Shown here: positions 18,390 to 59,992 of the stretch, one piece after another | How the letters are laid out: each line of letters opens with the position of its first letter | Numbering within the stretch: the first letter of the stretch is position 1 | Assembly: GCA_965178125.1 (NCBI GenBank) | Contig: OZ237755.1 | Span: forward strand, 682,001 to 746,000 | Origin: Bilabrum cf. latius | Taxonomy: Eukaryota | Length of the DNA: 64,000 nucleotides | Reading direction: 5' to 3' | The notes under the pieces: model-generated | Told to the model about the DNA's origin: nothing | The model's database searches: none | What the model saw: the letters and a program-made list of their open reading frames with translations, nothing else | Made by a program: the position numbers and the translations under genes

Positions 18390-18767
18390 GCGTGACACAG
18401 GCCGTAGACCATACCACATGTGCCAGTAAGGCCTATCCATAGGCCTATCATACATGATGTTGGCCCCCCGCACCGTATACCAGATTTTATTGCGTCCAAT
18501 TGCGTGGCCGCCGACTGCGACGAAGGTTTTTTAATACGATTCGTGGGTTTCGAAGCTACTTCTCGGGTTGTTTGAGTACCATTTTGTTTTTGTTTTGCAA
18601 ATAGGTATTGCAAGTATACGCGTTCACCTTCCAGTTCTGGGTACTCTCGGTACGGTATCCCCAAAAGCGCAGGAACATCGTGCAATATCGATATCAAAGT
18701 GTTCCAAAGCAATAGGTGTACATTCGCGTTACAATTAGTACAGCTACAATTAAATTAGCAACTGCTA

Positions 18768-21700
18768 ATGCAGCCCTCGACAGGTGCGGGACCAGAGTGG
18801 CGGAAATCACGCACTGGATCCGAACCGACCTTGGCCTCACCAACAAATAGTAGAGTGTATGGGGGGGCAGCAGTGCCAATATCCAAAAATGTTGACGGGT
18901 GCGGTAAAGCAGTAGCTAAGTCCCCGTATGGCTCCCTTAAGTCTTCTGAGCAGCCACAGACTCGCAACACTGCCCATGCAGGGCAAGCACCAATCCAGAC
19001 AGAGTCTGCAGGGCCCTCTTCCGGAGCAGGGGAGAATATCAATGAGGACTAGCTAGCCTATGACCGCCCTGGAGATTTTCCTAGTCGGACGTGCAAAGCG
19101 AGCCGTCAGCCCGCGTTCGAAGCTGCAAAGCGCGCTGTCGCGATTTACCCGTTCGAGATCTTGCAACGGAAGAAAAATCTTGAATAGATCGGTAGTAAGT
19201 TCGAACACGATGTCATTCGCGTGCTGGAAGACATGGCCCGAGTCGACTTAGATGGCATGAACTTGTTCACACCGAAGTGCATGGTGAAAATCGAGCAGAA
19301 CACTGGACTGAGATTCCTGGACAAAGGGTACGCTGGGGGGATCAAGGCAGTCCACAAACGCCTTGGTCTATTCTTTAAATTCGCGCTCGATGACAAGAGT
19401 ATGTACGGTAGTAACCGCATGGCGGCCAAGGTGGCCAAGCGGGAAGCGGCGGCGAGCAGGTGGGTGCATGTGATGGATAGCGTTCACGTATCCACGCCTT
19501 TGCTGGTGTGCGCAGACGTCAGGCTGAATCGCGGGAGAAATAGATCTGTAGTTGTTCGTGTGCAGGCATTTGCCGAGATCGAAGTGGAATCATCATCTAC
19601 TGAAGAGGGATCAGGCACTCTACGCGTCGGCTCGCCTGATGGTGGTATAACCATTCACCGCGACGAGGAGCAAATGTAGCACGTCGTCAAGGAACTTGCA
19701 AGGCACTTTTACGTTCAGGAGAACAAGGAAGATGGCCAAATAGCAGTTATTGAGCACGCGTACTCGCGTGCCACGCTGGATGCATCTACCAGCGCTGCAA
19801 GCCATGCCGCATCATGTGGAGCTCGTCGCGAAGCCCGGGAGGAAAGCTGCACCTGCTTGGACGCCTCCTTTGCTCTAGGTGAATCAGATCCCCGTCTATG
19901 CAACCTTGTTGACACCTTGAAATTGCATGGGGTTGGACCTGACGATGTGGACAAGCTAGAACGCGCCGTCAACCCTGCTGAGCTGCACGCAGCTTCGGAA
20001 GACACCAGCATGTTCACTGCCCAGTAGAAAGAGCTGGCTGCCGCGGCGCGTAGTACCATTTCATCTTCAGGCGCGTGTTTGAACTACCGGTGCCAACTCC
20101 AGCCGGCGTACCACTCTGCACGTCCCAGTACCCACAACCCCGACCCCCTCCCGTTCGACGTGGAGGTTCACCAGTTGCCAAGCGGTTAGAGGATGGTGCT
20201 GGACACGCATCGATTGTTAATTCCTGACGTTGCATGGATTCAATGGATGGAGGCAGAAGAAACAATGCCTTGTATATGGGGTATACGCGACGGCAGAATT
20301 GTGACAAGTCAGCGGAAGATGAAGAATCCTGCAGCTCTTGCCATTTATGAAGGTCACGAAGCTCTCGCTGGAGAGCTCAACGAATGGATTTAGCTTGATT
20401 GCCTAAGAGACGAAGCGGCCGGAGATGCACGTGAGATCCAAGCCATTCGGTTTTCTGGGGTGGACATCACCGATCATGCTGATACTGGATGCAAGATTGC
20501 CCTTGGATACCATGCCTCAGACAAATCGCAAGTGGCAATGGTTGCAATTATTTCACATCCTGCGTGGTACTATCGTCACAATGTTTCATTCACTTGTCTG
20601 CTGCCCCCGGAGAGTGCTCCTCATTTGAGGGAGATCGAGAGCAAGGAGATCGAGAGCAAGGAGACTGGGAGCAAGGAGACCGGGAGCAAGGACAGGTCAG
20701 AGTCAGTAGGTCTGTGCCCTGACAAGCTAATGGAGATGATTACTGACGGGAAGTCCGACGGTGCCGTAAGTCGCGCTGCAGAATTAATTCGAGAGCTATA
20801 CAGGCGAGCTTAGGATTGCGTCACGGAGCGATACCGAACCTGCCTCACAGATGCATCGAATGACACTGAAGGTGACCGCGAGTTCGCTGCTGCTGGTCGC
20901 AGCTCTCGTCGGGATGCTGCCACCGTAGAATCAAACCCTGCTAAGCTCCGAGCCGTGCTCAAGCGTACCATGCACTCGCTTGGATTGGGCCTGCGCCACG
21001 TCAGACTGCTTGTTGAACAGTTGAAAGGCCCGGAGGATTCTGTTATGAGGGATCGTATTCGAAAAGCTCTCTCGTATGGGTGCAAGCATGGATCAATAGC
21101 AAGCCGGTCCTTGAAAGATCTTTGCGCATGCGTGCGGTCCAAAGATCCTAGCCTGGACGCCCAACTTGTTGACTTCGCAACGACTGCAGCAGCGTGTTTC
21201 GCATCGAAAGGTATCTTGTTTGATGCGCCTCCACTCCCGCTCAGCGCTGCAGATGATACCACCGCCCTTTCACGCGCTCATGCGGCTGCATGCATTCAGG
21301 CCTCAAGCAGAGTAACCATAGCGACCCCTTGCTTCGGGGCAGACTTTGCGAGCTCCCATGGAATTCACCAACAAAATCCAGCCAAAGGTGTAGCTGCACT
21401 GATCAATGAGCTTGCTCACGTGCAGCGAGTCGGAGGCAACGGCGAGATCGAGCTTCTCGAGGCCCTGTGTGATCTGGCGGCTAGGTCGTCGGGCTTGAAA
21501 GCAATTCAAATTGCGGCTGCAATGCGGTGCACTGTAGGACAGGTTGACCCGTTGATGCAGCTTGCACGGATTACCACCGGTTCGAGATCCGATGGCGCAG
21601 CGGAGGATGATGCAGCAATTGACGGCGCCATGGCGCATGTGATCAGGGTGCTGAAGTGCCTAAAGCGGTGCGCAAGATTCAATGAGGCTCTGGTGGTGTC

Positions 21701-22859
21701 TGGGACAATGTGTGGTGTAATTCTAGCGACTAACGGCAAGCGTAGCTCGCGGTACGCACGGTATGCATCGATCTTGTAGGTGCACGCTGAGATACTACGG
21801 GAAGCAGAGAAAGGCGGCGAGGCGTTGCGCTGCTTCCGCCTTTGTGAAGAGGTGTACAGCGAAGTACGTGGTTTCAATAGCCTTGGTGCTGTTACTGCTA
21901 TGCGATGTCAAGCTGAAGTTTTACAAGGCATGGGAAAGTTTGAAGACGCTTTGCAAAAATATGAAGATTGCGCTGATCGTTGCAGTGAGACGGGAGAAGA
22001 GTAGTCCAGGTTGGAGTTCGCCGCTGTGCTGTGCGGCTGGGCGTCATGTTTGGACGATACTAACGACTTCAAGCTTGCTGGGCGCATGTACCAATAGTGC
22101 ATGGACATCCGGAAGCCTTTGCTGGGTGAAGCTCACCCGGATTACGCCGATACTCTGAATGACCTTGCGATACACCAGCAAGAGCAGGTGAAACAGTCGA
22201 ATCAAAAGCAGGGCCAAGGACTGCAGGAAGAGCAGGGCCAGCACAGGTACCAAGAAGCAGTGAGAACATTTGAAAAGTGTTGCCAGATCACGGAGACCTG
22301 CTATGGTAAGGGCCACCCCGATTACGTAGCTTCGCTTGCAAACATGGCGAACTGCTTGCGGATGAATGGTGACTATGTTTCTGCGTACGAGCGGTACAGT
22401 GAAGCCGTGAATCTAGCTGAGCAGGCAGCTGGAAATCCTAGCTGGCAGACCGGCAAGCTAATGAGCAGCAAAGCCGCCTGCCAGTTCATCACTGGGTTGG
22501 GCAAACCTGAGGAGGCCCTGGAGCTGTTTTGGAAGGCCGATACCATTCTCAACGAGACCGGTAGGGTGGATGAAAATCCAAGCTAGTATGCCGATCACCT
22601 TGAAAATATGGCGGAGTGTTTGGATGCTACTGGCGGGCATCGTGAGGCTGTGTAGATGTACCGCAAGTGCCTCCATATTCGGAAGAGTGTGCTCAAACTG
22701 GGGCAAGACCACCCGTAGTTCGTAACTGTGCAGCACAACTTGGCATTAAGTCTGGAGAGACAAAAGGATATCGAAGAAGCCTCGGAAAAGGATCAAGCGG
22801 GTGTATCAGTATCTTCCGAGGCGTAGGGCGGCGGTCGGGAATCCGACTCGGGATGCTGA
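18768..22859 (+). CDS. Clu-domain plus C-terminal TPR (kinesin-light-chain-type) protein, ~1,363 aa
   Basis: Single frame with 14 TAGs (19050, 19185, 19677, 20025, 20187, 20391, 20811, 21777, 22002, 22095, 22584, 22653, 22716, 22824), ending at TGA 22857. Clu-like motifs GYAGGIK..LFFKFALDDKSMYGS, LRVGSPDGGITIH, DVEVH...MVLDTHRLLIP, MHSLGLGLRHV. TPR motifs LGEAHPDYADTLNDLA, YGKGHPDYVASLANMA, LGQDHP. Confidence 0.8.
20630..20690 (+). repeat. 15-bp coding tandem repeat x4 (EIESK EIESK ETGSK ETGSK)
   Basis: GAGATCGAGAGCAAG x2 followed by GAGACYGGGAGCAAG x2. Confidence 0.9.
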
Positions 22860-23281
22860 GCGTGCGACCAAGCTCTTCAACATGGGTTGCTGCCTCAGAA
22901 GTCTCACAAAGCACAAGCAGGCTGCTCGTCGATTCAAAGAACACGAAGGCATTAGCGGTAATGCGCTTGGCCGAAGCTGATGCCGTACGCAGGAATCCGG
23001 AAGGTGTGCCCAGGCCTCTGATTGTGGCAGGCGCGCCAGCAAGTCCTGCAATCCAAGAGCCGCTCGACTTGGGTAGTGCTGACCAGGCCGGTCCGACCTG
23101 AGCCAGTGTTAAGGCAAAGCGGGGCCACCTCATCTTTGTGCAAAACATGCGAGCAATGGCTCCTTACCGAATTTCCCTACCGGGTAGCTACACATTTATT
23201 CTCTTACATTTAATCGGTTGCTATTCACTTAGAATATGATCCGGGATGTGGTGTGAAATCAAATCAACACTCCCCATGCAG

Positions 23282-26200: not shown

Positions 26201-29200
26201 GCTTGCATCACTCTCTACCTCGCTTGCAACTAGAGGGCCTCGTGCAGCCCCTGACCGCTCAGCCCCTGACCATTCGACCGACCCAGCCTTTGATGGCCTC
26301 TCGGGGCGCTCAACCTCAGCTGGCTCCGTCAACGGGGGGTCAACATCACTGGTGCCAGCAGCAGTAGCAGCAGCAGCAGCAGCACGAGCACAAGTATCAT
26401 CACCACCGCCATCACTGTCATGGTCACCCCCGGCGAGGTCTGGCTCAGATTCCTGGGCGGCTGAATCATCTTGTGGAGCCTTCAATTCGCCAGTAAAAAC
26501 TTGTGCTGATGCTGTCCTATGAGCAGCAGTCGCGTCTTGCTTGCCGGCGTCATCCACGTATTCGTCTGCAGAATTTCCTTCAGACGCATCGCCTTCTTGA
26601 GCTCGGCCTCCAGTGAGCTGCTACTAGATCTATGCACTCACCGACTCTTGTGCCTTACCATTGGTCGGAGCCGGCACCGAAGAGGGTGCATCGACTGCTG
26701 GCACCACCCAAGCCAGGGAATGTCCTGGCTCTTGATCGTTCGAGATACCTTTGGCACTTTCATCCTCAAACACAGGAGACTCTGACCTCTCAGCTGCGTC
26801 GTTCGACTGCATTGTCGTGTCAACCGTCACGCGCTGGCGGGCAGCCGCAGACGCAGGGCCGGCCCCCGCCCGGTCACTTCCCCGCCCAACGGACATTGCG
26901 CTTGGGTGCTTCAGCCGGACTCCACGCGAATCGCCAGCAAGTGAAGACTCCTACGTGATGTCTATCCCCGATCTATCGATACCCACCGCTCCCTTGCCAC
27001 GATCAGCACCCGTCTGCCCTTGATTATCGACTGCACTGGTCCCGGCGGCTGCATCATTGCAGGGGTTTGCGTCTCGTGCTTCGGTATGACCGCTGGAGTT
27101 CTGCTGAATCGCAGAAGGTGGGGGCCCGTGGCGGAAGTACCTTCTCCGGTACTCTAGCACGATGTCTACGGGCACTCCGCTGCCTAGGGACTCGCTGCAG
27201 TCGAACTCCGTCTCGACTGCTGCACTCGATTCCGCAACTAGCCCAGCTGTACTGTGGTTTCCGCCACCAGACTCGTCTGCGTCGTCCTCCCGCGGTGGTG
27301 TAACCGCGGCTTGCACAACCGAACGCATCGTGTGGAAATCTATCACAGCTGCACCGATCTTCTCGATAGGTGAGAATGCCCACCGCCCCTCTGGCATGAT
27401 GGGGCGCTCCCCGGCTGACCATACCTCCAGCTGCAGCCCTCCCTAGCGTGCGGGATCGAACCCCGCTTCCGCCCCGTCGGGATCACCGAGAAACATGGTT
27501 TCGAACGGGAACCATGTCGGCGTCCGCGCCCTGTGCGTGGCACTGGTGCTGTTCCTGGCATCGTTTGCGCTCCACCAGAGAACGTGAACGTTCTCATCGT
27601 TCGCTAGAAATGGTGTCTCTCCAGGTGCTGAAGGAGACGTGATACTTTCTAGTCCTGCCCGCAGCTCGACACTACTTTGCTCTGCCTCTTCATTGGGATG
27701 CAGTGGAAATCTGTACACAATGAACACGCCGCGGCCGCCGTCCGACCCAGCGCTCCTCTGGATTGCCTCTCGATGCGCAGCTGCAATCACTGCCGCCGTG
27801 GCGGTGCTCCTGTACTTTTGCACCGAGGCTGAGTTGGCGCGAAGCATGCTCACTTCGGCAGGCCTGGGCAAGAAAATACGAAGCCCGTGCCTGCACAGCT
27901 CTTCCTACTCGTGCAGTGACGCAGCAGACGCCACCGAGTTGTCATGGAATAAAGAGTCGCTCGCTCCGCGCTGGTCCTCTCGAGACTGCTCCTCGCCATT
28001 CTGAGCGCGAACCATCGCCGGCATGTCTGCTGCTGGCGCATCGTGGCTGTCTGCTCCCACGGGATCCCGATCATCGTTCGTGTCACCTGGCGGCTGGACG
28101 TGGCCAATCGTCCGGTGTTTTTCGGAGTCGCCCCCTGCCGTAGCACTCTCATAGTCTGGCTCATGGACGTCGTCCTGAGAGCGATCCACAGCAGTAGGAT
28201 GCCCCTCGTCACATGCATCACCCTGCTGAGCCCCCGCTGCATCATCGGGCGCATCCAGCGGGTTCGTCCCGGTGATCTCTTGCGCTGCGGTGGCCGCGGC
28301 GCCTTGACTTTGCAGGGGGACAGCAGCTGGGTATACCAGGTGAGGTAGCACCCGCTGCCTAGATGCCTCACTTGCCTACATCCGACGGGCCCACATTTGG
28401 ATGCAATAGGCAGCATCTTGCTCTCCTATGCACCGAAGTACGTCACTGGATGCCCCGATTCGGACGTCGAGCCAGCACTATGCCACTCGAGTCCCACTGA
28501 CGGGGTCCTTCACAGGAGCATACCCTGCGTGCAGGCTCGCCGTTCCGCCTATGCCAGCATCCACGACAGACTCTGCGCCTAGCAAGCCAGTGGCGCCTGC
28601 CGTACCACGTCCGTGTGAGCTCTCGGCCAGCCTGTCGTGCCGCTTGCGGGCCTGGAGCTTCGCGGCATGGAATAGAACGAACCGAAGTGGCACAGTCACG
28701 ATACCGAGGGTGCACTGCTGCGCCGACACGCTGCCCAGCTATTCTGACGACTACCCTGAATGCGTGGCAGTTCTGGGTTCGTCCAGCCCCGCCACTTGCC
28801 CTCTCACCTCAATGCAGGCCGATTTAGCCCTGAGACCTTCCAAGGCGGCTGCATCTGCTGGGAGCGGCAGCACTGCCGTGCCTTGCGGACCGGCGACAAA
28901 GGCAGGGAGCTGCGAAATACGGCGAGCAGTTTCTCCACCAGAGTCCGGCAGGCGAGCCACCGCTCTGAGGTGCAGGGGCCACTCCTTCAGCCCAACAGGC
29001 TGCCGCTGCTCCGTCGGACCTGTAGGTAGTGGTAGAACTGTTGCCGCAGTCGCAACCACTCTAGGGGCAAGCGACCACGCCGAGTGCAGCGGAGAAACCT
29101 TGTGCTCAGCCTCCCTTGATGCCATAGGACGGGTGCCTTCAGTACCTGCGGACTAGTTGCCGAGACCGACTGCACGATCTGCCCAGCGGATTGAGTCTCG

Positions 29201-32200
29201 CACGCGCACTCGATCCGTGCTATCAGCGCGCTCCTCCTCGTCCTGCCCTGGGACTCTGCTTGGCAGCAGCACGGTGTCGCGGTTCCTCGCTCGAATGCAT
29301 GCAGGCCTCGCGGAAACGTCTCTGATCTCCAGCACGCGCATCCAGAGCACCAGCGGGTCAGCGCTAGAGCCCATGCTACCCGGCGCACCCCTCCCAAGCG
29401 GCCGCGACAGGGAGCCCATCGCTGCCTGGTGCACCCTCAACTGCAAACCCTCTGGCACAGCCAAGGCTAGCCCGCGAGCCGGGACCATCCGTTTGAGTCG
29501 CTCGAGGGCATAGGATGCGGCGCGGGCTTTTCGATCTCCAATAGCCGCAGCATCTTGGGCAGGCGCCAGGGCTGCTTCAGTCCCTGACCCTGCATGTACC
29601 AGTGGAAGGACCTTGCCGCTTCCTGACAGCACGTTCCCAGCCGCGTTTAGCAATGCAACTGAAGTGCTCAGCTGGCCGACGACAGCCCCAGCGGGCAGGC
29701 GGCTCGAAGCAGCGCGTGCAAACACCTGAGCTTCCCTCAAAGCTGCCTGTCTCCTGCGATGCGCCTGTCGCTCCGCACCCCTCAAGTCCTAGGCTCCTCC
29801 TCGCCCGGCCCTAGCCCGCTCGTTGGCGCTGTCCGACTGCTACTACAGCCACTCGGTAGCCTCCTCTGTTGCTACCCAGTCGATACAGGCCATCCAAGAG
29901 GAGCTGTCTCCCAGCAGGAGCTGCCTCAGAGGCACGGATGCCCTGCACACAAGCAGCCTGCCGTCCGCACCAGTGAGTTCTCCCGATGAACTGCCCGCGG
30001 CCGCATGCGCATGCGCCTGCGACGCGCCACCACCGGCGCCGCCAGATCGCTGCCCAGAGCCTACAAGGGCAAGCCTGCTGGAAGCGCTGCTCCCAGGCTC
30101 CACGAACAGCCGCAGCTCCAGGGTGGCCTCGAGCCACTCCTCCACGGCATCGGACACGCCGAAGCCATCAGACTCGACGCCCTGCATGCCTTGGACGCGA
30201 AGGTCAACGCGGTGCCCGAATCGAACGGCAATGCGCTGCACCCCATCGGCGGCTAGGGCAGCCTCCGACAGCCGAGCATCTGCCGTTGCGCGCTCCATCG
30301 CGGCCTGCGCGCCCGCCCCGCCCGCCCTGCGTGTCCCATGCACTGCCTGCCTGTTGCCAGACCCATCTCTGCCTACCGGCTACCCAGCCCCTGTGCCAGC
30401 CACTGGTGACCTCCCAGCTCGGCCACCCGTGACTCTAGATCTCGCGGCAGCATTGCGGCCTGTTGCTGCCCTGCGGAATCTCGCAGCGTCACGCTGTTCC
30501 CTGCCTAGCCCAGGTGCTGGGGCGTTCGTGGCCAATCTGGTCAGGTGGGACTGGTGCGTGTCCTTGAGCTCTTCCGCGGGCATGCAGCACGCCTTGACCT
30601 CCCCAATGGGTAGGGATCGTGGCCTTGGCGTTGCGTAGTTTCCCTCCACGGGCTTTCTCGACACGTCATAATCGATCCACCAGCGAGAAGAACGCACCCA
30701 GTCGCCAAGGGCAGCCGAAAATGCCGCCGGCATAGATGCGTGCTGCGCCACCCTGCCAGAGACAGACTCGGCACCATCATCGCCCGTTGCTACTTGACCC
30801 TCGTGGCGTCGATCACGCCCTCCACGACCGGAGGTATCGCCCCCGCCGCGAGCAGCCTGCCTGCCACTGATCGCCACCTGGGCCACGCTTCGCAGCGACT
30901 TGGCCATACCTCGCAGAAACTAGGCAGACTCTCCCACTAGACCGAGTGAGACGCCTTCGCCGCCTGTGGAAGCACCGATGGCTGCAAGGCGCGCCCTCGC
31001 CGCTGCATACGCAGCCAGGACCGCGCGATCAGGCGCGATTGCCATGGCTGGCAGAGACACCCTCACTGCCTTCGTCCCCTCAACCTTGGACCGCATTGCG
31101 GCAGCAATTCGGCGCATGGCAGCAGAGTGCGCGCCATCCTGCCGAGCACGGACGTACTCCTCCATCAAGGCAGCGTCCTCCTTGCCCTCCCGCAGCAGCT
31201 GGGCCAGCACCCGCTCGTCGGGACCACCGTCCAGTGGTTCTTTCTGCTGGCCGAGAATCATCCCATTGCCATCTGCGCTGTTCAACTAGTCAAACGAGTC
31301 TCCCACCTCACCTCGCAGTGCCGATGCAGCCACATGCACGGCAGGGCCAGCCGCTCTCGATGCATCCTCCCAAGATAGTGGCTAGCCGGCTGCCCCAGGG
31401 ACGTCATCTCTAGCCAGCGGGCGCGTGGCATCCCTGTGAGTGCTGGACGACATGCCCGGAGCACCGGGCCCGCCTGCCCCGTAGTAGTCCTGCAGTGGGG
31501 CCCTGCCTGCGGGTCCCGATGATGACACGCTGTGGCCGCCCGTGTCACACCCAGAGCTGTACGACCCATTGCCGCCCATGGCTGCAATCGCCCTTGCAAA
31601 CGGCGGGGCACCGCCCGCGCCCCCATGCTGGCTGCGGCTTCCGGATTTTCCACGCGCCGGGTGCTCTTGCTTTGAAGAGGCGGGTCCGAGCAGCGCCTCG
31701 AGCTCGCTGCTGCCGAAACCCTCTTGGATGACTGCCTCTGCGTCCCCCAGCACTTCGTCGATGCCGAGCGAAGACGACGAGGTGGATGCACCGCGAGGGC
31801 TCTAGCCGTGGGAATGCCGAGACGTGCTCCCAGCGACCCAGTCACTAGTCGGACGAACGGTATGCCGTCGCGCGTAGTCTCTTGAACGCAAACCGCGAGA
31901 CTGCACCAGCGTCCCATCGGTCTCTCGGTCATGACCGTTCTCCCACATGTCATCCATGGGCTCCTCGGCTGACTTGCTCTCCACTGTGCCGCCCCTACTG
32001 CTTCCTCGTCGACTGGGCGCTGCTCCTGCTCCCGACTACACTGGCCCACGGCTCGATTCGAGCTCCTTGTCGATCTCAAGGGCTGCCTGTTCCGTTTCTT
32101 GGAGCAGCTGTTCCACGTCATGAAGCAGGTCGTCAGTGTTCGTCTGCCCCCCGGAACGCACGGCTTCGCCTGCAACGGTACTGTCAAGAACAGCCTCCTC

Positions 32201-34149
32201 TGCCCTGTCTGCAAGCTGCTCAGACGAATGCTGAGGGGACCTACCCGCAATGAATCGCACACCATTATTATCACCACCTCCGCCCCCACCGTGTCCATCT
32301 CTGTTGATCTACCGAGCGACCACTTCGGCGGGCAGCTCTGGAGGTACGTGCTCCCTCTGTCCAGTGCCTGATCCAGCCCTGCCTTGCCTGCCACCAGGAG
32401 CACCTGGATCTGTCCTGCGCCCGCACTGAGCCTCAGTAGCACCGCCATCGGCGGCGGGCAGCTCCCTGGACTGGGGCTATCCCGCAGAGGCATGGAGGGC
32501 TGCTCCGCGCCTCGCCGCAGGTTGGGGCCTCCCGCCGAGGATCGCGTCCAGGCCACGGGCGTCCGAGAGGCTTGAGGGTTCTTGGTGGCTGGTCATAGGT
32601 GTGGCTGCGGGTACTGATGTCGAGTTGCCTGGCCCTCCCTCCCCTTGACTGCCAACGTTCTGGTCGTCGCCGCCATGAGAGCTCATCTAGGGGTCGTCCT
32701 TATTGCCGCCCCGCTGCTATTTATTGTCTGCTCCCAGATGCTTCTACTCATCCTCACCCAGCTCTAGCTACCGCTGTCTGGCTCGCTGCTGCATAAGTTG
32801 AAGCAGTCTGGCTTTATTGTACCTGTCTGTAAATCTTCGATCCAGCGAATTGGCCGGACCGGTAGGCTGTTCTGATTCACCTAAGGCCTCTGGGGCCGAT
32901 GACCGATGCACCCCGACACCGGCAACGCCACTGCGACGGCCATCCCACGTTCCGTCGCTAGCCCGACCAGCTCCAGTATCATCCCAAGCATCAGCTCTAC
33001 TGCCAACTCCAGCGTGCGCGCCAGCCGCATCGTCGGCCCCAGTTTCAGCACCAGCACCAGCACCAGCACCAGTACCAGTACCAGTACCAGCACCAGCACC
33101 AGCACTAGCACCAGCCCCTCTACCATAGCCACGGTCGTGCGAGTCAGGCAGCGTAGGGGGCTCTATCGTCACATTTCTGCCTTCATGGTGTCCCATGGCT
33201 TGTTCTCTGTCTCTAGGAAGTGGTTTACCGCTCTGGATCTTGCTCGGCGCCACAATCTCCTCGATGCCCGGCAGCCTTCGCAGCACGCTGTGCTCCCCTG
33301 TCCTGAGGCGAACCTCGACAAGTATCGTGCCAAGCATTCGCTGCTGCTGCTACTGCTGAAGATGCTGCTAATTGTCTTGAGGAATGGCGCTGCCGGCTCG
33401 CGATGCAGGCGGTGGTTCGGCTTGGGCTGAATGAGCAAGTGCTCGGACTGCGACGAGCAGGCGAGCATTGCAGCCTTTTGGTCGCACCGAGGCGGAGCCC
33501 CCCAACTCTTCGCTGCGTCGTTTTGTGGGGTCCACTCTCATTTGCGCGGCTGCGTCTTTCAGCGGCTGGATCAATGGCACGAGTGGCACCAGGGCCTCAG
33601 CCAGCGGAGCAAAGTCGCGTGCTCTCAGAACTCGCAGAACGACGGTTTTCTGCGTTTCGATGGCAAAACATCATAATTGAAAGAAGAGCTAGCTAGCATT
33701 CGTAGGACTGGCTGGGTTAGTGCAGTGGCTACAGGGAAACTTACCGAGTCTTCCAAGTATCGTGCAAGCCCGGTTCCACCCGCTCGCACTGCCCATAGCG
33801 CGCATGTTTCTCGTGTGGGCTTTGCCAGAAGGTGCCCATGCTCATTAATGTGCCTTCTAAGACCACCATCAGTTGACATTGCCGGGGATAGGTACGTTCT
33901 GGCATATTCAGGTCCGCTCGAGCTGTATGATGGCCCTCGATTCCCCCACCAATGCACCTCAACCACGACAGGTTCGCGGTTGAGTGAAGCGCCATACTAT
34001 GATGGTCTTGTGGGCTCGTATGCCACAGCATGAATTTGCAATTCTCCTCGAATTTCACCAGCCAGCCCGGGAGGCAACGACTCTTCTGCAACGTCACCTG
34101 GTAGAAGATGCCCCTGGCCACTATGGGCCGATTTTCCCTGCCCTTTCAT
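23282..34149 (-). CDS. C2CD3: C2CD3-like centriolar multi-C2-domain protein, ~3,590 aa, exons 34149-33745 and 33649-23282
   Basis: N-terminus SLPPGLAGEIRGELQI...VVVEVHWWGN...WAVRAGGTGLARYLEDS|KTVVLRV resembles the C2CD3 N-terminal C2 domain (LPP..G..R..L, VRWWGE, Y.VRCG...YL.DM). C-terminal C2 VTIDRANDLP...PSTFAVV...TTPIVLASSKPAY and LVGTATVDLSRLARMGSVRGWYTL. Over 20 track fragments lie in one frame, separated only by about 39 TAGs. Ends TGA 23282-23284. Confidence 0.8.
26074..26247. repeat. 57-bp coding tandem repeat x3 (19 aa, ARGPLVASKVEGGASQART) within C2CD3
   Basis: Unit starts CAGTTCGAGC at 26074, 26131 and 26188; near-identical copies. Confidence 0.95.
33046..33116. repeat. Hexamer microsatellite (CCAGCA/CCAGTA)n encoding a GA/GT dipeptide run in C2CD3
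   Basis: About 11-12 imperfect hexamer units. Confidence 0.9.
33650..33744 (-). other. Intron of C2CD3 (95 nt)
   Basis: GTAAGT donor, CTAAC-like element, ACGCAG acceptor, phase 0. Splicing changes frame and completes the C2 domain. Confidence 0.85.
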
Positions 34150-34236
34150 GCGCAAAATTAAATTAACGCAATAATATCGACAAACTACAGGCAATCACTT
34201 GACAAGTGCGACACTATTGGCTACAGATTTTGAATT

Positions 34237-34260
34237 GAAATACAGAAATACAGAAATACA
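34237..34260. repeat. GAAATACA x3 tandem repeat upstream of the C2CD3 start
   Basis: Three perfect 8-bp copies in AT-rich intergenic DNA. Confidence 0.85.
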
Positions 34261-38466: not shown

Positions 38467-41400
38467 ATGGATAGCCCCGCTAGGAGCACCCGATCAAATG
38501 CTACACTGGGATCGAGACAAGTTGCTTCAACGGCTGCTGATGAACTAGCCCAGATGCCCGAGCTGACGCGACTCTATTCGGAGGAAGAGCTGCGCATCCT
38601 TGGTGAAATTGTTCAATACGCGAACTAGGCATCTGGAGCGTCGGACTCTCCCATGCGCGGGACACGCGGAGCGGCGCCTTCGCTCATTGATGTGCTTAAG
38701 GCGTATGATGCGGTGCTTCGTCGCGAGGGTGTGGACGCTGATAGCGACACATTCTTCTACAGGACAATATTGCGTATGAGCTTGGATCCGAGTGCAGACT
38801 GGTGGACCAAACTTGAAAACGAACGACGTGTGAGCGCAGAAGTGGAGCAAGCTACCCAATTCGACTTGCCGCTCATAACCTGATTTCATCGGATTTATGT
38901 CAACTTGAAGCCCCATTTCCTTACGTGTTCTGTCATTTTAAACTTTGAGCGCAGGAAAATGAGCAGGAGTTCGCAGCACAGATCGTGGCAGCCTCGAGAG
39001 CCTCCCCCGGCGGAATGTCAGTGCGCAGCGTCGCTTCCAATGCGCGGAGAGGACATCCCAGAAACGACCCCTGGAGCAGCTCGAGACCCAAATCTTCAAC
39101 CGCTGCTGAAGTGTCCTCGCGACCCGGTGCGGCCGCACGCGGAGACGGCGGGGTGCTGGGCGACAGCCTCCGCCGATGGATGGACCACACAGGCGTAGAG
39201 GCGGCCAGGAGGGACAGGGGCAGCAGCGGCGACTTCCGTACGCGAGTGGGCAACGGAGCACGACTAGAGCGCAGACTATCCGGCGTCGGAGGCGTCCCGC
39301 GCACGCTGGCGGATCCACCCCCGCCGCCGCCGCCTCGCGCTGGCGAACCAGGGAGGAACGTTCGATATGTAGACCCGCAGACCCCAGCGCGGGGGAGTGG
39401 TGTCCCCCGTGACGGCCTCGGCGCTAGCCTAGCCTCCCGAGGGGACGCCCTGGGCGCAGATGCTCTCCGTGCCCCCGGGGAGCCACGGGCACCGCCTGCT
39501 TCTTCCTCTTCCTCTTCCGCCAGTCCGGAGCAGAGGTCCAGCTCGCCCTACCGCCCTTCTTCGTCGCCGTCACCGCCACCGCCGTCATCCTCGGCCAGGA
39601 TGCCAGGACACGGCCAGGAGGCGGGTTCGGCGCACAGCCGCCGCAGCGGATTCGGTGTGCAAGAGGAGGACGACGAGGATTACGGAGGTAGGCGGTCCTG
39701 GCGCGGATCCGGAGCCGAAAGGACCGGGGGAACAAGATCGAGCGATCTGCGCGCGGGTGGCAGCCCGACGTACGACGGACTTGCCATGGTCCGCGGAGAC
39801 AGGGGCAGGGACACCAACGGGCGAAGGAGCAGCGAAGGAGGGAATGGCAGCGGCACCCGCGCTAGCTCTGCGGGGCTCGGCAGAGATGTCTATGGAGTCG
39901 AAGGTGAAGATGGAAACGATGCCCAGCACGACGGGGCGCTTGCAGGTGGTGATGACGACGACGACCAGGCGCTGGTGGACGGCGGCCGCTGGCAGGACCC
40001 CGCCAGCTTCCTCGAGTTTCGGCTGATGGCCGTGGTGTTCCGGTCGTGGGCCAAATGGCTGCTCCACAGGAAGCTTTCTCAGGACGGCGACTACCAGAGG
40101 GAACAAAGGCTGAGGCAGCAGCTCCTCGTTGCGTCGGTACGGCACGAGTCCAGGCTCATGGAGGTTGCGTTCGGCGTGTGGAGGAGACAGGCTCTCGAGT
40201 CGCGAGCGCTGCGGAGGAGGATGGGCGACCTGACTGGAGTGTGGAGACGGCGCCGCCGGCGAGACGCCTTCTACGCCTGGAGGGAGGCCGTCCTCGACGC
40301 AAGGGCAGTGCCCATTCGAACCAGGATGCAGGCGTGGGTGATGTTCAAGTGGATTTCCAGGTCGCTGCCTGACAGGGGCGAGGCATGGACGGGCAACCAG
40401 CTCGACCGGCTGCTCGCTAGACTGGAGGGAGGCCCGGGGGCAGCGGCGGCGCGCCGACTGGCCAATGGGTCGCCGCGCGCGGGAGGAGGTGCCGCCAGCG
40501 GGGCGGGTGCCATGGTGCCCGTGTCCGGCGGGGGCGCAGCGGCGGCGGGAGACACAGAGCGGCTATCGCAAGACATGAGGACGCTCACCGCAGGTGGTGG
40601 CAGGGCGGTGCACGTGCTGGCGAGCGCAGCGTCAGACTGGATCTCGCCGGATGCGCCTCGGGCGGCCACGGACCGCACCACCGACGCCGCCTCGCTCGCC
40701 GCTCAGATCGCGGCGGCCACGCGGCGCAGGGGTGACTTCCGCACCCTCTCGGCGCCTAGGCTTAGAAGGCTACGGCGCTACCTGCTGAGTCGGGTGCCGG
40801 TGAGGCCAAATAGGCTGGTTCTCTTGGAGAGCGCAACGGCTCGCGTCGATGCGCATTATCTGCTCGGTGTGTTTGCGGCACTGAAGCAGCAGGCCAGGGC
40901 GAACAAAGCCGCTAGGCGACGGCGGTTGGTGGAGACGGGCCGTTCGGCTCTGAGGACCTGGCGCGTCCACGCAGCGATGATCGCCGCACTTCGAGAGCGG
41001 ATGGTCCAATCGGGCGAGAAGCAGAATCAGAGACTCACCCAGCGCGTGTTCCGTCGCTGGCACAAGGCTGCCGATCTGGGCCGAAGGGAGCGGATCCACG
41101 ACCAGGTGGCCCAGAGGAGGAGCAAGCTGAGGGTGTGGGCCAGCTGGCGCCGGGCCTTCGTCACGAGGCGCGCGGCTAAGGCCAGCTTCGGCAGGATGTT
41201 TGTGCTCAGGTTTTTCCGGAAGTGGGCGGATCAGGCGCGGGAGGGCGCGAAGGTCAGGCGGGCTGTGCAGCGCTGGCACCGCGCCTCTCTGTTCAAGGCA
41301 TGGGGCAGATGGTCCCAATTCCACGCGGCTCGATCGGCCGCCATGCACGACGCCTCTGAGCAGACCAAGGCCCTGGACTCGAACAGCAGGAAGCAACGGG

Positions 41401-44400
41401 CTTGGCAGGCGTGGGCGAGGGCCCTGCACCAGCAGGAGGTGGTGCGGCGGTGCGTGCAAGCCATCCGCATGCGGTCGGCGGCTGGGGCGTTTCGCACCTG
41501 GAAGGCACGCGCGGGGCGCATGGCCGAGTTGCGTCGTCTGGAGATCGTGGTGGCCGAAGAGGTGCGCTGCGCTCACCTGAGGACGAGGACCTGGTCGTCT
41601 TGGAAGGATGCACTCGCTCGCCTTCGTGCTGGCCGGAAGGCCATGGCGTTCTGGCAGCGCGGGACCGTCGCTCGGTGCTTTGGCGCACTGAAGAAATCCG
41701 TGCGCGACACGAAGCGAGCGGCCGAGAAGATGCGGCCGTTCCTACTTCGTGTGCAGAACCGCGTGGCCGCGACCGCATTCGCGACGTGGGTGCACCGCGT
41801 GCAGGAGGCCCAGGACCTCAGAGAGAAGCAGAGGCGAGCCTTCGCGATCTGGACGCAGGGCACACTAGTGCGTACGTTCAGGGCGTGGGCAGGCATGGCC
41901 AGGACCAAGAAGGCGGGCAAGATGATGGCGGACCGCGTGCTCCGCGCGTGGAGGATGCAGACAGCAGCGCGGTGCTTCCGAAGCTGGGCTGCGCACACCG
42001 CCGAGGCGGTTTCGATGCGCGATAGGATGCATACCGTGGCGCGGCAGCTCCTTCACATGCGTACTGGGAGGGCAGTGCGCGCCTGGCGGGAGTGGTCCGC
42101 GGAGCGGGTCGCGGGCCGCGAGGCCATGCGCCGCGCAGTGGTCCGGTTCCGCAACGTAAACACCGTTCGCGCCCTCAACCAGTGGCACGCCTGGGCCAGC
42201 GAGAGAGCCGAATCGAAGCGCAAGGCTAAGCACGCCTTGGCCAGGCTGCTCATGTCCAGGCAAGCCCACGCCGTGTCGCACTGGAGGCAGTGGGCCGCCG
42301 GCATTAGGGAACACAAAGCGATCATGGGAAAGGCGCTGCATCGGATGAGGCACGCTGGCCTCGTGCGCGGCATCACCCAGTGGCGGCAGTGGGTGCAGTC
42401 GAGGAACCAGATGCGGGAGAACATGCGGCTTGTGGTGATCCGAATGCAGCACGCAAGGGCCGGGGCCGGGCTGCGCGCCTGGATGGAATGGACCAGGGCC
42501 AGGCAGCATAAGCGTGAGTCCATGCAGCGCGTGGCGCAGCGGCTGAGCAAGCACCGAGAGGTTTGGGGGCTCTCCCGTTGGGTGCAATTCGTGCAGAGGC
42601 GCAGGCACGCTCGAGAGGTCATGGAGCGGTCGGTGCGCCGGATGCTGTTCGTCCAGGGTGCACAGGCAATCCAGCGGTGGAGAGAGTGGATGGATGAGCG
42701 GAACGATGCAAGGCAGCGCCTGTCCATCTGCGTGGCTCGCATGAAGAACGCGCGGTCTGGCGCTGCCCTCCGCTCCTGGGCCGGCTGGGCGCAGGCTCGA
42801 GGTGAGAACCGTAGGCTGATGCAGGCGTGCGTGACGAGGATGAAGAACCACCGGAGGAGCTCGGCGCTCCGCACCTGGGTCGGTTTCGTGCAGCGGAGGA
42901 ACGTCGCGAGGGAGCTCGGGAGACGTGCTGTGCGACGCATGCAGATGGTCAGCTGTGCCCGGGCGGTCGACACGTGGACGGACTGGCTGAGGTGCCGCAC
43001 CGAGGCAAAGCAGCGAATGCGAGCGGTGATCAGGCGGATGCAGAAGGGCAGCGCGGTCCGCGCCCTCACTCGCTGGCGCAGGAACACGCAGCACAGGCGG
43101 TCCGAAAGGGCGCTGCTGCAGGGCGTCGTGAGGAGGCTCAGGGGGTCGAGGCAGGGCAAGGCTCTGCGCACCTGGAGAGACTGGGCAAGCGACCGGGTAG
43201 AGACAAGGGACCGAGTTAGGCTGGTGGTTGTCAGGCTGCAGAGATCGCGAGAAGCGTCTGCCGTGAGGGCGTGGCACGACTGGGCAGAGGAACGTGTTGT
43301 CAATAGGAATGCGCTGCGTCGTGCGGTGTCTCGGTTCACCCAGGTGACCAGCAGCAGGGCTTTCTACACCTGGCGCGTGAATGCGTCGGAGCAGAGGTGG
43401 GAGCGGGAGTCGATGCGCAAGGCGCTCTCGTGGCTCACTGGCGGGTCCAAGAGGAAGAGTTTCTCAGTGTGGAAGCGCAACGTACGCACGATCCGAAGGG
43501 AGCGAGCGATGCTGGACCGGGCCGTCCGTGGCATGCAAAATGCCAAGGCAAAGTCTGCCATCAACAAGTGGCGCGAGTGGACGGGCGAGCGCCTGCACAC
43601 GCACGATGTCATGGCCGCCGCAGCGCGCGTGTTTAGAAACAGAGGGGAGAAGCGTGCCATCAACCAGTGGCGCGAATGGGTTGCAACCCGGGCTTACAAC
43701 CGCGGTGTGATCCATCGCGCGGCGGCTCGGTTGCGGAACCGAGCGATGACGTCGGCATTCTTCGGATGGCGGGAAGCTGCGTCACAGCAGTCGCTGGGAC
43801 GGCTGCGGATGACGGCATGCATTGAGAGGCTCCTGCAGAGCAAGACGCGAGCTGCGTTCGAGCAGTGGTTGGCTGTGCGCGATGAGAGCCGTGAGGACGA
43901 GCGCAAGATGAAGTATGCCATCACGCGGATGCAGAACAGGGGCCTCGCAGGAGCCGTCGATACGTGGCGGGGCTGGGCAACAGACCGCGTGCGAATCAGG
44001 GCCGCTGGGCAGCGGGTTCTGCTCCGCTGGCAGCAGTCCAGCACCGTGCGCGCCCTGAACCAGTGGTCCTCATGGACGGCGGACAGGCTGCAGAGGAGGG
44101 AAGCGATGCGCCGCACGGTGGCGATCATGAGGCAGTCGGGCACCAGCCGCGCCATCCGGCAGTGGCGCGACTGGATGGAAGAGAGGGCGAGGCAGAAGGA
44201 GCTGATGAGGCAGTGCATGGTCCGCCTGCAGCACTCTGGGCTGGCTCGGGGCCTCCGCAAGTGGCGCGACTGGTGTGACGAGCGCGCTGCCAGCCGCCAG
44301 CGAATGCGGGCGGTGCTGCTGCACTGGCGCGGGCAGCGCATGGCCAGGGCGCTTGCTAAGCTGCGTGAGAATGCGGCACAGAGGCAGCTGGGCCGGCTGC

Positions 44401-47400
44401 AGATCCAGAGCGCGATGGCCATCTGGAGGAACTCCCAGGCTGGTGCAGCGTTCAGGGCCTGGCGCCAGAATGCAGACGAGCAGCGGCGCGAGCGAGAGAT
44501 CACGCAGAAGGCCATGCGGCTGTGGGAGCTGCGGACCGCTGCGGCTGCCTTCCGCGCGTGGAGAGACAACGCGTACGCACAGGCCGAGAATCGGGCCCTG
44601 GTGCAGCGTGCGGCCGCGAAGTTTGCCCACGCGCTCGAAGCCAAGGCCTTCAACCGGTGGAGGGTGTCAGCCCAGCAGAGGATGCAGGCGCGCAGGGTGC
44701 TCCACGGGTGGATTGAGAGAACAAAGTACCAGGCGTGGCGGCAGTGGGTGGCGGCGACCAGGCATGCGATCAGCGAGGAGCAGCAGCAGAGGGAGATGGC
44801 TGCACGCGCTCTCGGATTCTGGACGAAGGGCACGGCCCGCCGCGTGTTTGACCGATGGAGAGGGCACACCGACTGGCTGGCGTCTCTGCGCGAGCGTGCT
44901 ACGATTCTGCAATCCAAGGCCGCCGAGTGGAGGCTCCGGGGTGCGTTGAAGCAGTGGCACAACGGGCTGGTTGCGGTGGACTACAATCGCAGGAGGCTGG
45001 CCAACGCCGCGATGCAGGAATGGAAGGCAGCGGCGCGGATGGGTCGCTAGGAGAAGGCTCAGGTGAACAGCTTCGACCGCAGGGTGGACAGCGCGGGGAG
45101 GTTTGAGGCCGTGCAGTCGGCAGTCACGCGCATCGCCAAGAGGCCCATGGGAAAGGCTTGGAACTCGCTGGTACTGCACGCCAGACAGAGGCGCTTCCAG
45201 AGGCTCTAGGTGGTGATGGCACTGACACACTTCAAGAGGAACGTTCTTTGGAGGTCGCTCAGGCAGTGGGACGCTGGTGTCAGGGTGCAAAAATCTGAGC
45301 GGGCAGCTACGACGTACTACCAGTACGGCCTCAAGGCCAGGGTGCTTGATGCTTGGGGCGAGACAGCGGCCACCATCCGAGTGCAAAGGCACAAGATGGC
45401 CAGACTGGCCGCGGTCGCGCTGGCACACCGCACCGAGAGAAGTCTTGGCTCCCATTTCCGCGGCTGGGCCGCGTACGTTGGCTGGCGCAAGCAGCTGAGG
45501 CTCCGGCTGTCTGCTTTCCTGTCCAAGCAGCGCTCTTCGGACCTGCAGTCTTCCTTTGAGGCGTGGGCGCACGAGGCCAGGAGGAGGAAGAGGCTGCGCG
45601 CCGCCGTCACGGGCTTCGTGTCGAGGACGACCAAGGGCAGGCTGCAGGCCGCGATCGGGGACTGGCGTGCGTGGACCGCCCGCACTGCGTGGGCTCGTAA
45701 GGCCGCACGGCGGTTCTTTGTGGGGTCCACCACGGTGCGAGCCTTCTAGGCTTGGGCTGCCTTCAGGGCGCAGAAGCAGAGGATGCGCTCGATCGAGGAG
45801 CAGGCCAGCGTGATGAGGGCCCGCATCCACGGGAGGCTGCTCAAGACTGTGCTCGCACAGTGGAGCAGGGCAGTGCGCATGGAAAAGGCGGCGGGCGCCC
45901 TCCGCAGGCGCTTCCTCCAGTCTAACCTGAAGCCCGCGGTATTCCGCCAGTGGCGCGACGGCTTCCGGATGCGCAAGTTCTAGAACAGCTAGGTGGCCAA
46001 GATGATGATGATGCGGGCCATGACGGGCAAGCGCAGGGTGTTCGAGACTTGGAGGGAGGCTTGGATCGAGGGGAGGAGGGTCAAGGGCATCGCCACCACG
46101 GTGTTCCAGCGCTGGAGGCACAGGAACGAGTCCAGGGCCATCCACAGCTGGAGGGAGTGGGCCGCCAACCGGATTCGAACCCGGGAGGTGGGTACGGCCG
46201 CGGCAATCCGGATCGCCAATGCCAGGCAGGTGTCCGCTGTGGCCAGGTGGCGGGAGTGGGCGGGCGAGCGCGCGAGGCTCCGCCGCGCCGGGATGATCGT
46301 GGCCACTCGATTCCGTCGGCAGAAGGAGGTCGGCGCGCTGTCGCAGTGGCGGTCCTGGGCGGCTGCACGCGTGGAAGGCCGCGCAAAGCTGAGGGCCGCG
46401 GGCGCGCGCATGCGGATGCTGGGTGAGTCGCGGGCGCTGCGTCGGTGGTGCGAGTGGATCGGGGCCAGGAGGCAGGCCCGTGATGACCTGCGTCAGGTGC
46501 TTGCCAAGGTGCAGCTGTCTCGCGAGGCAGCCGCGCTCCGCACGTGGATGCAGTGGACGGGCGACCGCGCTGCGGCGCGAAAGTCCATGGCGAGAGCAGT
46601 GCACCTGATGCGGAACTCTGGGCTGGCGCGCGGCCTCAGGCAGTGGCGGTCGTGGACGAGTCAGACTATCCGCAACAGGTAGCTCCTTATGAAGGCGACG
46701 GGCGCGTTCCGCCTGCAGTCCTGCAAGCTGGCCATCAATCGATGGAGAGAGCTGTGCGCTCGGCAGCAGACAGCAAGGGACATCGCTGCCAGGGCCGTGC
46801 TGCGTTGGACCCAGGCTTCCATGGCGCGCTGCTTTGCCGGCTGGAAGGCGAATGCCACAGAGCAGAGGGATGCGAGGGCACGAGCCGCCGAGATGTTCCG
46901 CAGGAGGATGGTGCGGGATACGCGCACCTTTTTCGGGGCGTGGCGCGACACGGCGCAGGAGATCCGGTTGAACCGAATCGCAGACCACACGAGGGCGAGG
47001 ATCGTGTTTGGTCGCGCGGTGGGCACCTGGAAATCTTTCTGGCAGGAGCGCAAGGCGATGAGGAAAGCCGTCCTCCGGCTGACCCACATCAAGCAGGCCC
47101 GGGCTCTCGACGAGTGGAAGCGATTCCTGGTATTGCGACGGGTGGGTCGCCTGGCCTTCGGGCGCAAGCAAGAGCTGAAGAAGAGGATGTTCCGGAGACT
47201 CGCCGCCGCTGTCAAGGAGCAGAAGCGCGTGCGCCGAGTGACCAAGTCGGCGCTTCAGCTCTTCAAGAACAGGACCCTCGCGAGCTCGTGGCAGAAGTGG
47301 AAGGCCTTCATGAAGGTTCGCAAGGCTCTGAACGCGTTCTTCGACACGCGAATGGACCGTCTCAAATCGGACTGCTTCCGCAGGTGGCTGCTGGGTGCGG

Positions 47401-52788: not shown

Positions 52789-53297
52789 TGTTTGTACGAG
52801 CAGCGGGAAATAGACGCTACTGTATCGACCAGAACACAGCCTATCTCAGCTGACTACAAGCTATGGGTCACAAAACGAAAATATTTGTTTGACTGGATAG
52901 TACAATTAGCGCAGCAGCTCAAGCAAGAGGCCGAAATCAGTGGATACGTTTTGCACTTGCTGTTCGGTTTAGTAGCGTGTTACCATCAGAGTAATCTGTA
53001 TTTTCATGCCGGTTGGAATAATGTGCATTCCTGGCACTTCGACCCGCTTCAATCATGGACAATGACCTTCCGTCTCATATGCGGAAAGAAAGAAGTGAAA
53101 TGGACGCTCTGGCCGATGCATATTCTCGAAAGCGAGATACAGGATCTCGATTTGGCTCAGTGGACCGGGTGCGGGTTCCACTGCAACCGGCACGCATGCC
53201 AGCCCCAAGATCAGGGGGACCGCCGTCCAATCACCCTGCCAGAAGCCATGAGCACAACTAGAAATATGTTGACTAGCAGAATGCTGCTCTGGAAGCG

Positions 53298-59499: not shown

Positions 59500-59992
59500 C
59501 CCCAGTGCCGTCTTGAAAGATTCCAGGCTCGTCAACAGGCGTACCACGTCCCGTGAACAATCTCAGGCTAGGACAAATAGCAAGTTGGGGTTGTGATGAA
59601 CTATATCACTCCTTTAGTTGAGTTCTGAGAGGTAGCAACTGGCCTCGCCCAGTGCCTGAGAAATGATAAGTTGGTGAAGTGGTGATGTGACAGCCTGATG
59701 AGGTCCCGCTGCAGCAGAAGCGACGTGGTGCAGCCTTCCGAAGGTGCCAACGGCACTATAACGGTTGAGCGCCGCAGTCTATGGTATCAGGAGATAGTCT
59801 ACCCTGTTTTTCTAGAGATGGCAAGTGCGCAGCTTTGTTTACGGCTCAGGGCCCGAATTGCTTGGGCCTCCAGCCTCGAGCCCAGAACGGCGACTCTGCT
59901 TTGTGTGATGAGTGCACAACCATGAAGATGAATGTGTGATAATAAAAATCGGCCTGCTTGAGGGGGGTTTTCAGCCGGAAATATCAAAAGCC

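Follow-up and report, generated by a model that had tools for sequence, protein, structure and literature searches.

The 64,000-nucleotide stretch analyzed here (hereafter, the window) comprises positions 682,001 to 746,000 of contig OZ237755.1 in the assembly GCA_965178125.1 of Bilabrum cf. latius (48.6 Mb in 111 contigs, 60% GC) and carries long open reading frames (ORFs) containing TAG codons. The most conspicuous is the minus-strand frame 23282-33670, which has 3,462 codons, 38 TAG and no TAA or TGA until the TGA at its end; its first ATG is at 33541, and the other five frames of the interval contain 40-113 TAA and TGA codons apiece. Near its 5′ end lies a glutamine-rich run with two in-frame TAG, at 33370 and 33352, among CAG codons (33341..33370, minus strand). 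The same frame contains a tandem TAG TAG followed by CAG (29837..29845) and three TAG inside five codons, again followed by CAG (26618..26632). A first-pass annotation, made from the letters alone, had proposed from these three strings that TAG behaves as a synonymous codon for glutamine. All three match the sequence exactly and share one frame, and the six further sites that it cited, 4220, 10247 and 23965 on the minus strand and 20025, 22095 and 62696 on the plus strand, are in-frame TAG beside CAG or CAA in four long ORFs. In total, the ten long ORFs of the window contain 102 in-frame TAG in 17,166 codons.

In a Pfam search of the window ORFs, no family matched the frame 23282-33670, and no full-length homologue was returned by the homology search for its residues 2770-3070; our impression that it encodes a C2-domain or C2CD3-like protein is an assumption. 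The glutamine-rich run is downstream of the first in-frame ATG, and the coding score there is weak (+2.3 for 33400-33281); upstream of 33640 the scores are negative. A start at 33337, later than the ATG at 33541, is conceivable and would leave the run outside the coding sequence.

To see how TAG is used more widely, we considered 433.8 kb of the same contig around the window and collected ORFs of at least 400 codons with TAG read as sense; of the 91 found, 89 were kept by a codon-model filter. With TAG read, ORFs cover 71% of the sequence, as compared with 21% under the standard code, 22% with TAA read, and 37% with TGA read, and the number of ORFs of at least 1,500 codons is 20 versus one under each of the three other stop sets. 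The 89 ORFs contain 649 TAG, 3,120 CAG and 1,140 CAA, so that TAG would constitute ∼13% of glutamine codons, and at least one TAG is present in 81 of them. Glutamine codons are enriched beside TAG (84 observed versus 55 expected, 1.53-fold, Poisson p = 1.7e-4), as is TAG itself (26 versus 11), while glutamate codons are at expectation (70 versus 71, 0.99-fold). For the window only (102 TAG, 10 ORFs), the respective values are 16 versus 8.2 for glutamine and 12 versus 12.0 for glutamate. Hence the check suggested by the first-pass annotation, enrichment beside glutamine and not glutamate codons, gave the predicted result. Its further claim, that this evidence needs no homology, goes too far: TAG passes the neighbor test, but CAA, an undisputed glutamine codon, fails it, with 1.14-fold for glutamine and 1.36-fold for glutamate neighbors in the 433.8 kb and 0.59-fold and 1.48-fold in the window. 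Since CAA does not obey the neighbor rule, homology is needed, and the amino acid has to be set by conserved alignment columns.

Dynein heavy chains provided most of such columns. A family search yielded 28 AAA_6 matches, which were reduced to 19 genes, and in all 19 ten-kb stretches a single frame is open only via TAG (3-42 in each), with no other stop. The genome thus has at least 19 dynein heavy-chain genes; they lack introns over the stretches read, and several are well beyond the usual length. We compared 41 frames from dynein loci, three of which turned out not to be dynein, with 120 listed homologues, at most 40 per query. Of 432 TAG, 207 had 20 or more aligned homologues, and for 78 the column was conserved at 70% or more. 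The conserved residue was Gln in 38 of these columns, Glu in 12, Lys and Arg in five each, Ala in four, Asn in three, Leu, Val, Ser and Phe in two each, and Thr, Tyr and Gly in one each. This spread is explained by the comparison of paralogues, and the rate of Gln columns does not differ from that at CAG and CAA codons (471/911, p = 0.64). At 90% conservation or more, 33 of 53 TAG columns are Gln. The log-likelihood for TAG is −158 for Gln, −246 for Glu, −261 for Lys, −370 for Leu, −380 for Tyr, and −474 for Trp. In one dynein gene with true orthologues, ten of 26 TAG sites are conserved at 75% or more, eight as Gln and two as Glu. A further family agrees: the switch-II pattern of small GTPases was matched 12 times in 30 Ras-family loci, and its glutamine codon is CAG in five and TAG in four; the remaining three matches have other codons, and we judged them to be off-motif.

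The Glu columns bring up the possibility that UAG encodes glutamate, as in Blastocrithidia and the ciliate PL0344, or yet another residue. Apart from the 12 of 78 conserved TAG columns that are Glu, the data speak for Gln, which is ahead by 88 log units. Moreover, Glu codons occupy Gln columns in only 57 of 1,323 cases, TAG is not enriched beside Glu codons, and it is found at the switch-II glutamine of GTPases. We regard a glutamate or other assignment as having a negligible chance of being correct.

The ORF ends in the 433.8-kb sample (74 TGA, 15 TAA) are TAA or TGA by construction, and we therefore used ends that are recognizable from the protein. Among 35 such ends, a small sample relative to the genome, TGA is found at 29, TAA at six and TAG at none. 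In particular, a prenylation cysteine motif closes the protein at 19 of the 30 Ras-family loci, and the next codon is TGA at 16 of these and TAA at three; TAG never directly follows the motif, and one TAG is situated 11 codons ahead of a CaaX box. The 16 dynein ends are TGA in 13 cases and TAA in three, and in two of these genes TAG sits 15 and 19 codons ahead of the end. The KDEL/HDEL pattern gave 11 matches (for K/H, three followed by TGA, one by TGG and none by TAG), too few for use. UAA as a ciliate-type glutamine codon finds no place here: TAA does not occur inside the gene frames, no long ORF is gained when it is read as sense, and it ends three dyneins, three GTPases and the gene of the release factor eRF1.

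A subtler scheme would have UAG context-dependent, read as Gln inside genes and as a terminator close to the 3′ end of the mRNA, the situation in Condylostoma. In context-dependent codes, among which Blastocrithidia is also counted, the reassigned codon would be found at gene ends as well and would be depleted shortly before them. It could draw on the retention by eRF1 of T32, a residue that contacts the G of UAG (PMC5304391), and on the low TAG count in a single bin, 11-20 codons before the stop (2/890). Yet TAG is absent from all 35 recognizable ends and is not depleted in the last ten codons (7/890 versus 6.4 per 1,000 overall), and conserved C-terminal motifs still follow the TAGs located 11, 15 and 19 codons before the end. 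Context dependence thus seems quite unlikely.

Judged from the sequence, TAG is a sense codon genome-wide that occurs in Gln columns and at none of the recognizable protein ends. The original suggestion is supported, as the conserved columns, the GTPase switch-II motif and close orthologues (see below) all fit glutamine. We propose, with a probability of roughly 0.94, that in this genome nuclear UAG has joined CAG and CAA as a fully synonymous codon for glutamine, and that UGA, the main stop, and UAA, a minor one, retain their function.

Orthologues of the frame 23282-33670 are present in public assemblies as fragments with 36-95% identity. A search with the interval 27371-30370 of the minus strand returned seven proteins (P0242-P0248), and the orthologues of this gene in public collections are solely pieces of 116-368 residues. 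The 89%-identical fragment P0243 has Gln at the TAG at 28478..28480, and the 87%-identical P0247 has Gln at the TAG at 30380..30382, so that Gln is found at both aligned internal TAG sites of close orthologues. The second check suggested by the first-pass annotation, a comparison with sister sequences, thus also came out in its favor. P0242 (95% identical) ends exactly one residue ahead of the TAG at 27443..27445, and P0243, one residue ahead of the TAG at 28376..28378. Given these ends, the relatives probably carry TAG at the same sites; they would then share the code and have been gene-called with the standard table. Standard-code gene calling shreds such genomes, as seen in these orthologues that are in pieces, with two stopping exactly at TAG sites. 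More distant fragments (36-59%) have gaps or Thr, Lys, Arg, Glu or Val at nine TAG sites, and none has Gln.

We found no CAG/TAG polymorphism among four sequencing runs (X1-X4) over 14700-34500. Differences between runs cluster at repeats (approximately 19457-19478, 20178-20219 and 34279-34463); a further three letters differ in a single contig of low depth. Pieces of dispersed repeats at 34240-34500, 20154-20219 and 19416-19478 have very deep coverage and many variant letters in all four runs. A contig from X4, an independent-looking DNA run that may be the source of the assembly itself, shows no differing letters over 33122-34208. A contig from X1 with GT..AG joints is unchanged over 16429-20064, an interval spanning seven TAG; this run may mix DNA and RNA.

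These data are relevant to the idea that TAGs are removed prior to translation, by RNA editing or as parts of tiny introns, or else represent pseudogene lesions or assembly errors. For 26000-33700 no RNA data set is listed, and none of the runs is recorded as RNA; direct documentation of transcripts is thus missing, which leaves some room for it. Still, the spliced X1 contig retains its seven TAG, which argues against editing, although with the caveat about the nature of the run. Further, the 19 dyneins and the single eRF1 gene are interrupted by TAG alone, never by TAA, TGA or frameshifts, and a dedicated tRNA with the anticodon CUA is present. Taken together, this makes removal or error very unlikely.

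The nuclear CUA tRNA (G000:C23:907607-907679, minus strand) scores 69.8 bits, the second best of 48 matches to Rfam RF00005. It has a canonical cloverleaf and a downstream T-run, is the only such gene recovered, and lies on a 1-Mb contig, adjoining a 2,988-codon frame with 18 TAG. A 21-letter piece of it has no matches in viral contigs, and a T-loop pattern was no richer than the control. For the UUA anticodon, 100 of 113 matches were listed, and none of the five with tRNA-like spacing that were checked is a tRNA; one simple-repeat class and the 13 unlisted matches were outside this search, and hence absence is not established.

By identical letters, the CUA tRNA is closest to tRNA-Tyr(GUA) (50), followed by tRNA-Gln(UUG) (49), tRNA-Glu (46) and tRNA-Gln(CUG) (44). 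The D stem and G73 are as in tRNA-Gln(UUG), and the acceptor stem with C1:G72, the anticodon stem and the 5-nt variable loop are as in tRNA-Tyr. Among the nuclear tRNA types parsed, C1:G72 is limited to tRNA-Tyr and the CUA tRNA, and the acceptor-stem pattern matches these two genes alone. Over the acceptor and anticodon stems, the CUA tRNA matches tRNA-Tyr at ten of 12 positions, the top of 335 pairs with different amino acids (the next has eight); this comparison covers 27 tRNA types, with tRNAs for Leu, Trp, His and Asp not recovered, and the stems were picked after the alignment had been seen. In eukaryotes, tyrosine identity is set by A73 and C1-G72; bacterial glutamine identity involves G73 and U35, the eukaryal glutamine set is not given, and several amber tRNAs become Gln acceptors (PMC9976931). 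Yeast amber tRNA-Tyr mutants are slightly charged with Gln by E. coli GlnRS (PMC1483225, PMC2965240). An origin of UAG-reading tRNAs from tRNA-Gln(CUG) has been predicted (PMC5304391); the gene found here is not what a recent duplicate of tRNA-Gln(CUG) would look like.

Two other observations concern tRNAs. Near-identical tRNA-Met(CAU)-like genes, all with a close resemblance to a tRNA-Pro(UGG) gene, occur in at least six places (G000:C3, C5, C7, C9, C25); several have another T-loop motif at a distance of 72 bases, and the genes are possibly a tRNA-derived repeat or tandem pairs. The mitochondrial contig G000:C111 (38,401 bases) carries clustered tRNAs, including one with the anticodon UCA, which is consistent with the UGA = Trp code reported for bicosoecid mitochondria.

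The eRF1 gene, a single copy on contig C35, has four predicted exons, encodes 438 residues, ends in TAA and contains two in-frame TAG. One is at residue 48, where 116 of 118 homologues have Gln, and the other corresponds to human L69. The change L69Q is also seen in a Zostera eRF1, which was left out of the 118-homologue alignment together with one other duplicated form. Near the stop-codon pocket, the protein departs from columns conserved at 85% or more by A27T, R28K, G29A, N30D, I35V, S60V, N129S and K130H, and it keeps T32, E55, NIKS, S70, Y125, C127 and F131 (YxCxxxF). The substitution L69A raises read-through slightly more at UAG (PMC4381064), and eRF1 has L69A in the rhizarian exLh and T32G in Iotanema (PMC5304391). 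We infer that the substitutions found here may remove UAG recognition. In GlnRS (region C33:558064-561330), the anticodon-binding loop is unlike that of human GlnRS, the only one compared.

The change could then have operated as follows. A single nuclear CUA tRNA would be charged by GlnRS and would read UAG and not UAA, as C34 is unable to pair with A. In eRF1, most UAG recognition would have been lost via changes around the GTS loop and the stop-codon pocket, the candidates being (human numbering) A27T, R28K, G29A, I35V, S60V, L69Q, N129S and K130H. CAG and TAG would interchange by single transitions, and mixed CAG/TAG runs would result. Much more tentatively, with the odds against it as a whole, stramenopiles would have here their first reassigned nuclear codon, and its tRNA would stem not from tRNA-Gln but from a duplicate of tRNA-Tyr(GUA) that acquired CUA by one substitution and was recruited to GlnRS via A73 to G73 and a Gln-type D arm, or else be a Tyr/Gln chimera. 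Here, the code would be locked in by eRF1 itself, as its gene needs UAG to be read twice, once at L69, a residue with an implied role in recognizing UAG.

Several observations weigh against UAG being simply glutamine, or against parts of this mechanism. One dynein TAG falls in a column with Tyr in 33 of 33 homologues, and a TAG in the gene of the cytosolic GluRS is aligned to Trp, Tyr and Tyr in the three structures shown. Glu columns are commoner for TAG (12/78) than for CAG and CAA combined (66/911, p = 0.025); CAA alone is found in Glu columns at a rate similar to TAG (15/106). The second eRF1 TAG is at a position that is Leu in 116 of 118 homologues, the eRF1 exon junctions, including the one fixing G29A, are inferred from the GT-AG consensus, and N30A has no effect in yeast (PMC4381064). 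The CUA tRNA possesses the Tyr determinant C1:G72 and shares just 44 letters with tRNA-Gln(CUG), and the tRNA inventory is partial, as its 48 matches come from 63 of ∼780 candidates scored. As for the GluRS gene (G000:C15:942364-945642), its odd TAG lies directly ahead of the conserved EFSRL motif.

Some of these points would be accommodated if UAG were mainly Gln but partly ambiguous, with the CUA tRNA charged by TyrRS as well. Both the C1:G72 pair, restricted to tRNA-Tyr and the CUA tRNA and a eukaryal Tyr determinant, and the two TAGs in aromatic columns fit this; the discriminator base does not, being G73, whereas Tyr identity needs A73 (PMC9976931). Nor do the columns, since among 607 columns with at least 90% Tyr, TAG occurs in one, the same as CAG, as compared with 33 TAG in such Gln columns. 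We therefore consider Gln/Tyr ambiguity unlikely.

The best named dynein match is Cafeteria roenbergensis (66%), and in a quick tree of one dynein gene with 28 rows the sequence is sister to three Cafeteria-clade sequences with SH-aLRT support of 100. By this single gene, the organism appears to be a bicosoecid-like stramenopile, sister to the Cafeteria clade. The three Cafeteria-clade dyneins are full length and have Gln at conserved TAG sites. We also scanned metagenomes with a dynein segment and considered the best 80 of 585 loci. The closest locus has no in-frame stop over 4,276 aligned residues and has CAG at 12 of the TAG sites of our genome. Since the Cafeteria clade has Gln and the closest locus is stop-free, the code change would have arisen within bicosoecids once the Cafeteria clade had branched off. 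Among the same 80 loci, nothing exceeds 63% best-segment identity, and the stop-bearing ones mostly have TAA and TAG, ciliate-like, with none shown to share the code. Three metagenome dyneins (L183, L209, L225) have all three stops in frame (34 TAA, 32 TAG and 28 TGA in L209), as in ciliates without a dedicated stop. Two fragments, L229 and L246, have TAG only (three in 449 and two in 395 aligned residues), mostly opposite Gln, and are too short to decide between a UAG-only code and a UAR code in a GC-rich genome. The assembly contains two unlike 18S types. One, short (1,700 nt) and divergent, is tandemly arrayed at G000:C12:950271-1029808 on a 1.3-Mb contig; the other is a single 1,802-nt gene at G000:C95:6099-7900 on a 17.9-kb contig. 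The latter, which we take to be dinoflagellate-like, probably comes from a co-assembled second organism.

The other window genes also contain in-frame TAG. On the minus strand, these are a ubiquitin-specific protease (PF00443; 1..10466), which extends past the window edge and has nine TAG, including 10247 and 4220, and a DUF547 protein (55039..59562) with ten. On the plus strand, the last exon of an MFS transporter (PF07690; 16284..18389) has three TAG, which are intact in the X1 contig; runs X1 and X2 both show GT..AG joints of this gene, at 16081-16179 and 16215-16429. It is followed by a CLU/TPR protein (18576..22859) with 15 TAG, 14 of them past the first ATG, including 20025 and 22095. 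A single spliced X1 contig reaches from the MFS gene into the first part of the CLU/TPR gene, which lies downstream on that strand (16429-20064); this may reflect overlapping UTRs (untranslated regions), read-through transcription or DNA in the run. Further on this strand are a Trp/Arg-rich repeat protein of 3,759 codons with eight TAG and no Pfam match (38949..50228), a WD40 protein with two TAG (53022..54611), and an open frame past the window edge with six, including 62696 (62060..64000). The repeat protein contains ∼150 Trp at regular spacing within Arg-rich repeats and is presumably Sfi1-like.

The code that we propose, presumably NCBI translation table 15, is already known and rare; what is apparently new is the stramenopile lineage. 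Searches aimed at stramenopile, bicosoecid or later cases gave no nuclear UAG = Gln code from stramenopiles; since the literature covered leaves out most journals behind subscription, an earlier description may exist. The word stramenopile is absent from the available parts of PMC11687900, PMC10553269 and PMC5304391, and PMC6723347, PMC12152300 and PMC12574857 concern mitochondrial codes. Reassignment of UAA nearly always goes along with that of UAG, and only a handful of nuclear genomes split the two. UAG alone has been reassigned to Gln in Iotanema spirale, Hartmannula sinica, Trochilia petrani and Protocruzia tuzeti (PMC11687900; the same background is given in PMC10553269); Iotanema is a fornicate (PMC5304391), and the other three are ciliates (PMC11687900).

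As in these organisms, UAG here would be Gln, and termination would be left to UAA and UGA. Internal UAG is present in most genes, 81 of 89 here and 78-84% in H. sinica and T. petrani, and is a minor Gln codon, with 13% here and 18.5% in H. sinica (PMC11687900). On the other hand, the main stop here is TGA (29 of 35 recognizable ends), whereas 87-98% of genes in the recoded phyllopharyngeans terminate in UAA, and we found a CUA tRNA gene, a type not detected in either H. sinica or T. petrani (PMC11687900). The genome of Iotanema was unsequenced in the 2017 paper, whereas here a genome assembly is available, and eRF1 keeps T32, which is T32G in Iotanema (PMC5304391). The known cases with UAG alone as Gln come from transcriptomes or incomplete assemblies, without a decoding tRNA. 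Having the CUA tRNA, eRF1 and GlnRS together, with Cafeteria as a standard-code outgroup, makes it directly testable how eRF1 can cease to recognize UAG and still respond to UAA and UGA.

Other codes share some of these features. UAG is likewise uncoupled from UAA, with a different amino acid, in Rhizaria sp. exLh and the TARA phyllopharyngean metagenome-assembled genomes (UAG = Leu) and in Scotinosphaera (UAG = Ser, cited in PMC11687900). At eRF1 position 69, exLh has L69A, while the L69Q seen here is TAG-encoded and a state shared with a plant eRF1. In the UAR = Gln codes of Tetrahymena, Paramecium, ulvophytes, hexamitids, oxymonads and Amoeboaphelidium, UAG is similarly read as Gln via a CUA tRNA (PMC11687900); unlike them, TAA here is never in frame and ends genes, and a UUA tRNA was not found in our partial search. 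Engineered amber suppressors that become charged with Gln in E. coli (PMC9976931, PMC1483225, PMC2965240) resemble our tRNA in that the CUA anticodon provides U35, a main GlnRS determinant, and G73 favors Gln; Gln acceptance is seen for the amber forms of tRNA-Trp, -fMet, -Ser and -Lys and, to a slight degree, of yeast tRNA-Tyr. As these are laboratory cases with a bacterial enzyme, and the eukaryal Gln set is blank in Table 1 of PMC9976931, the parallel is a lead only. With a genome at 60% GC, the present stramenopile is unlike the lineages of the known UAG-only Gln codes. Stramenopiles would thereby join the lineages with altered nuclear codes, and the genome in question, rich in GC and with TGA as the dominant stop, differs from those of the ciliate cases.

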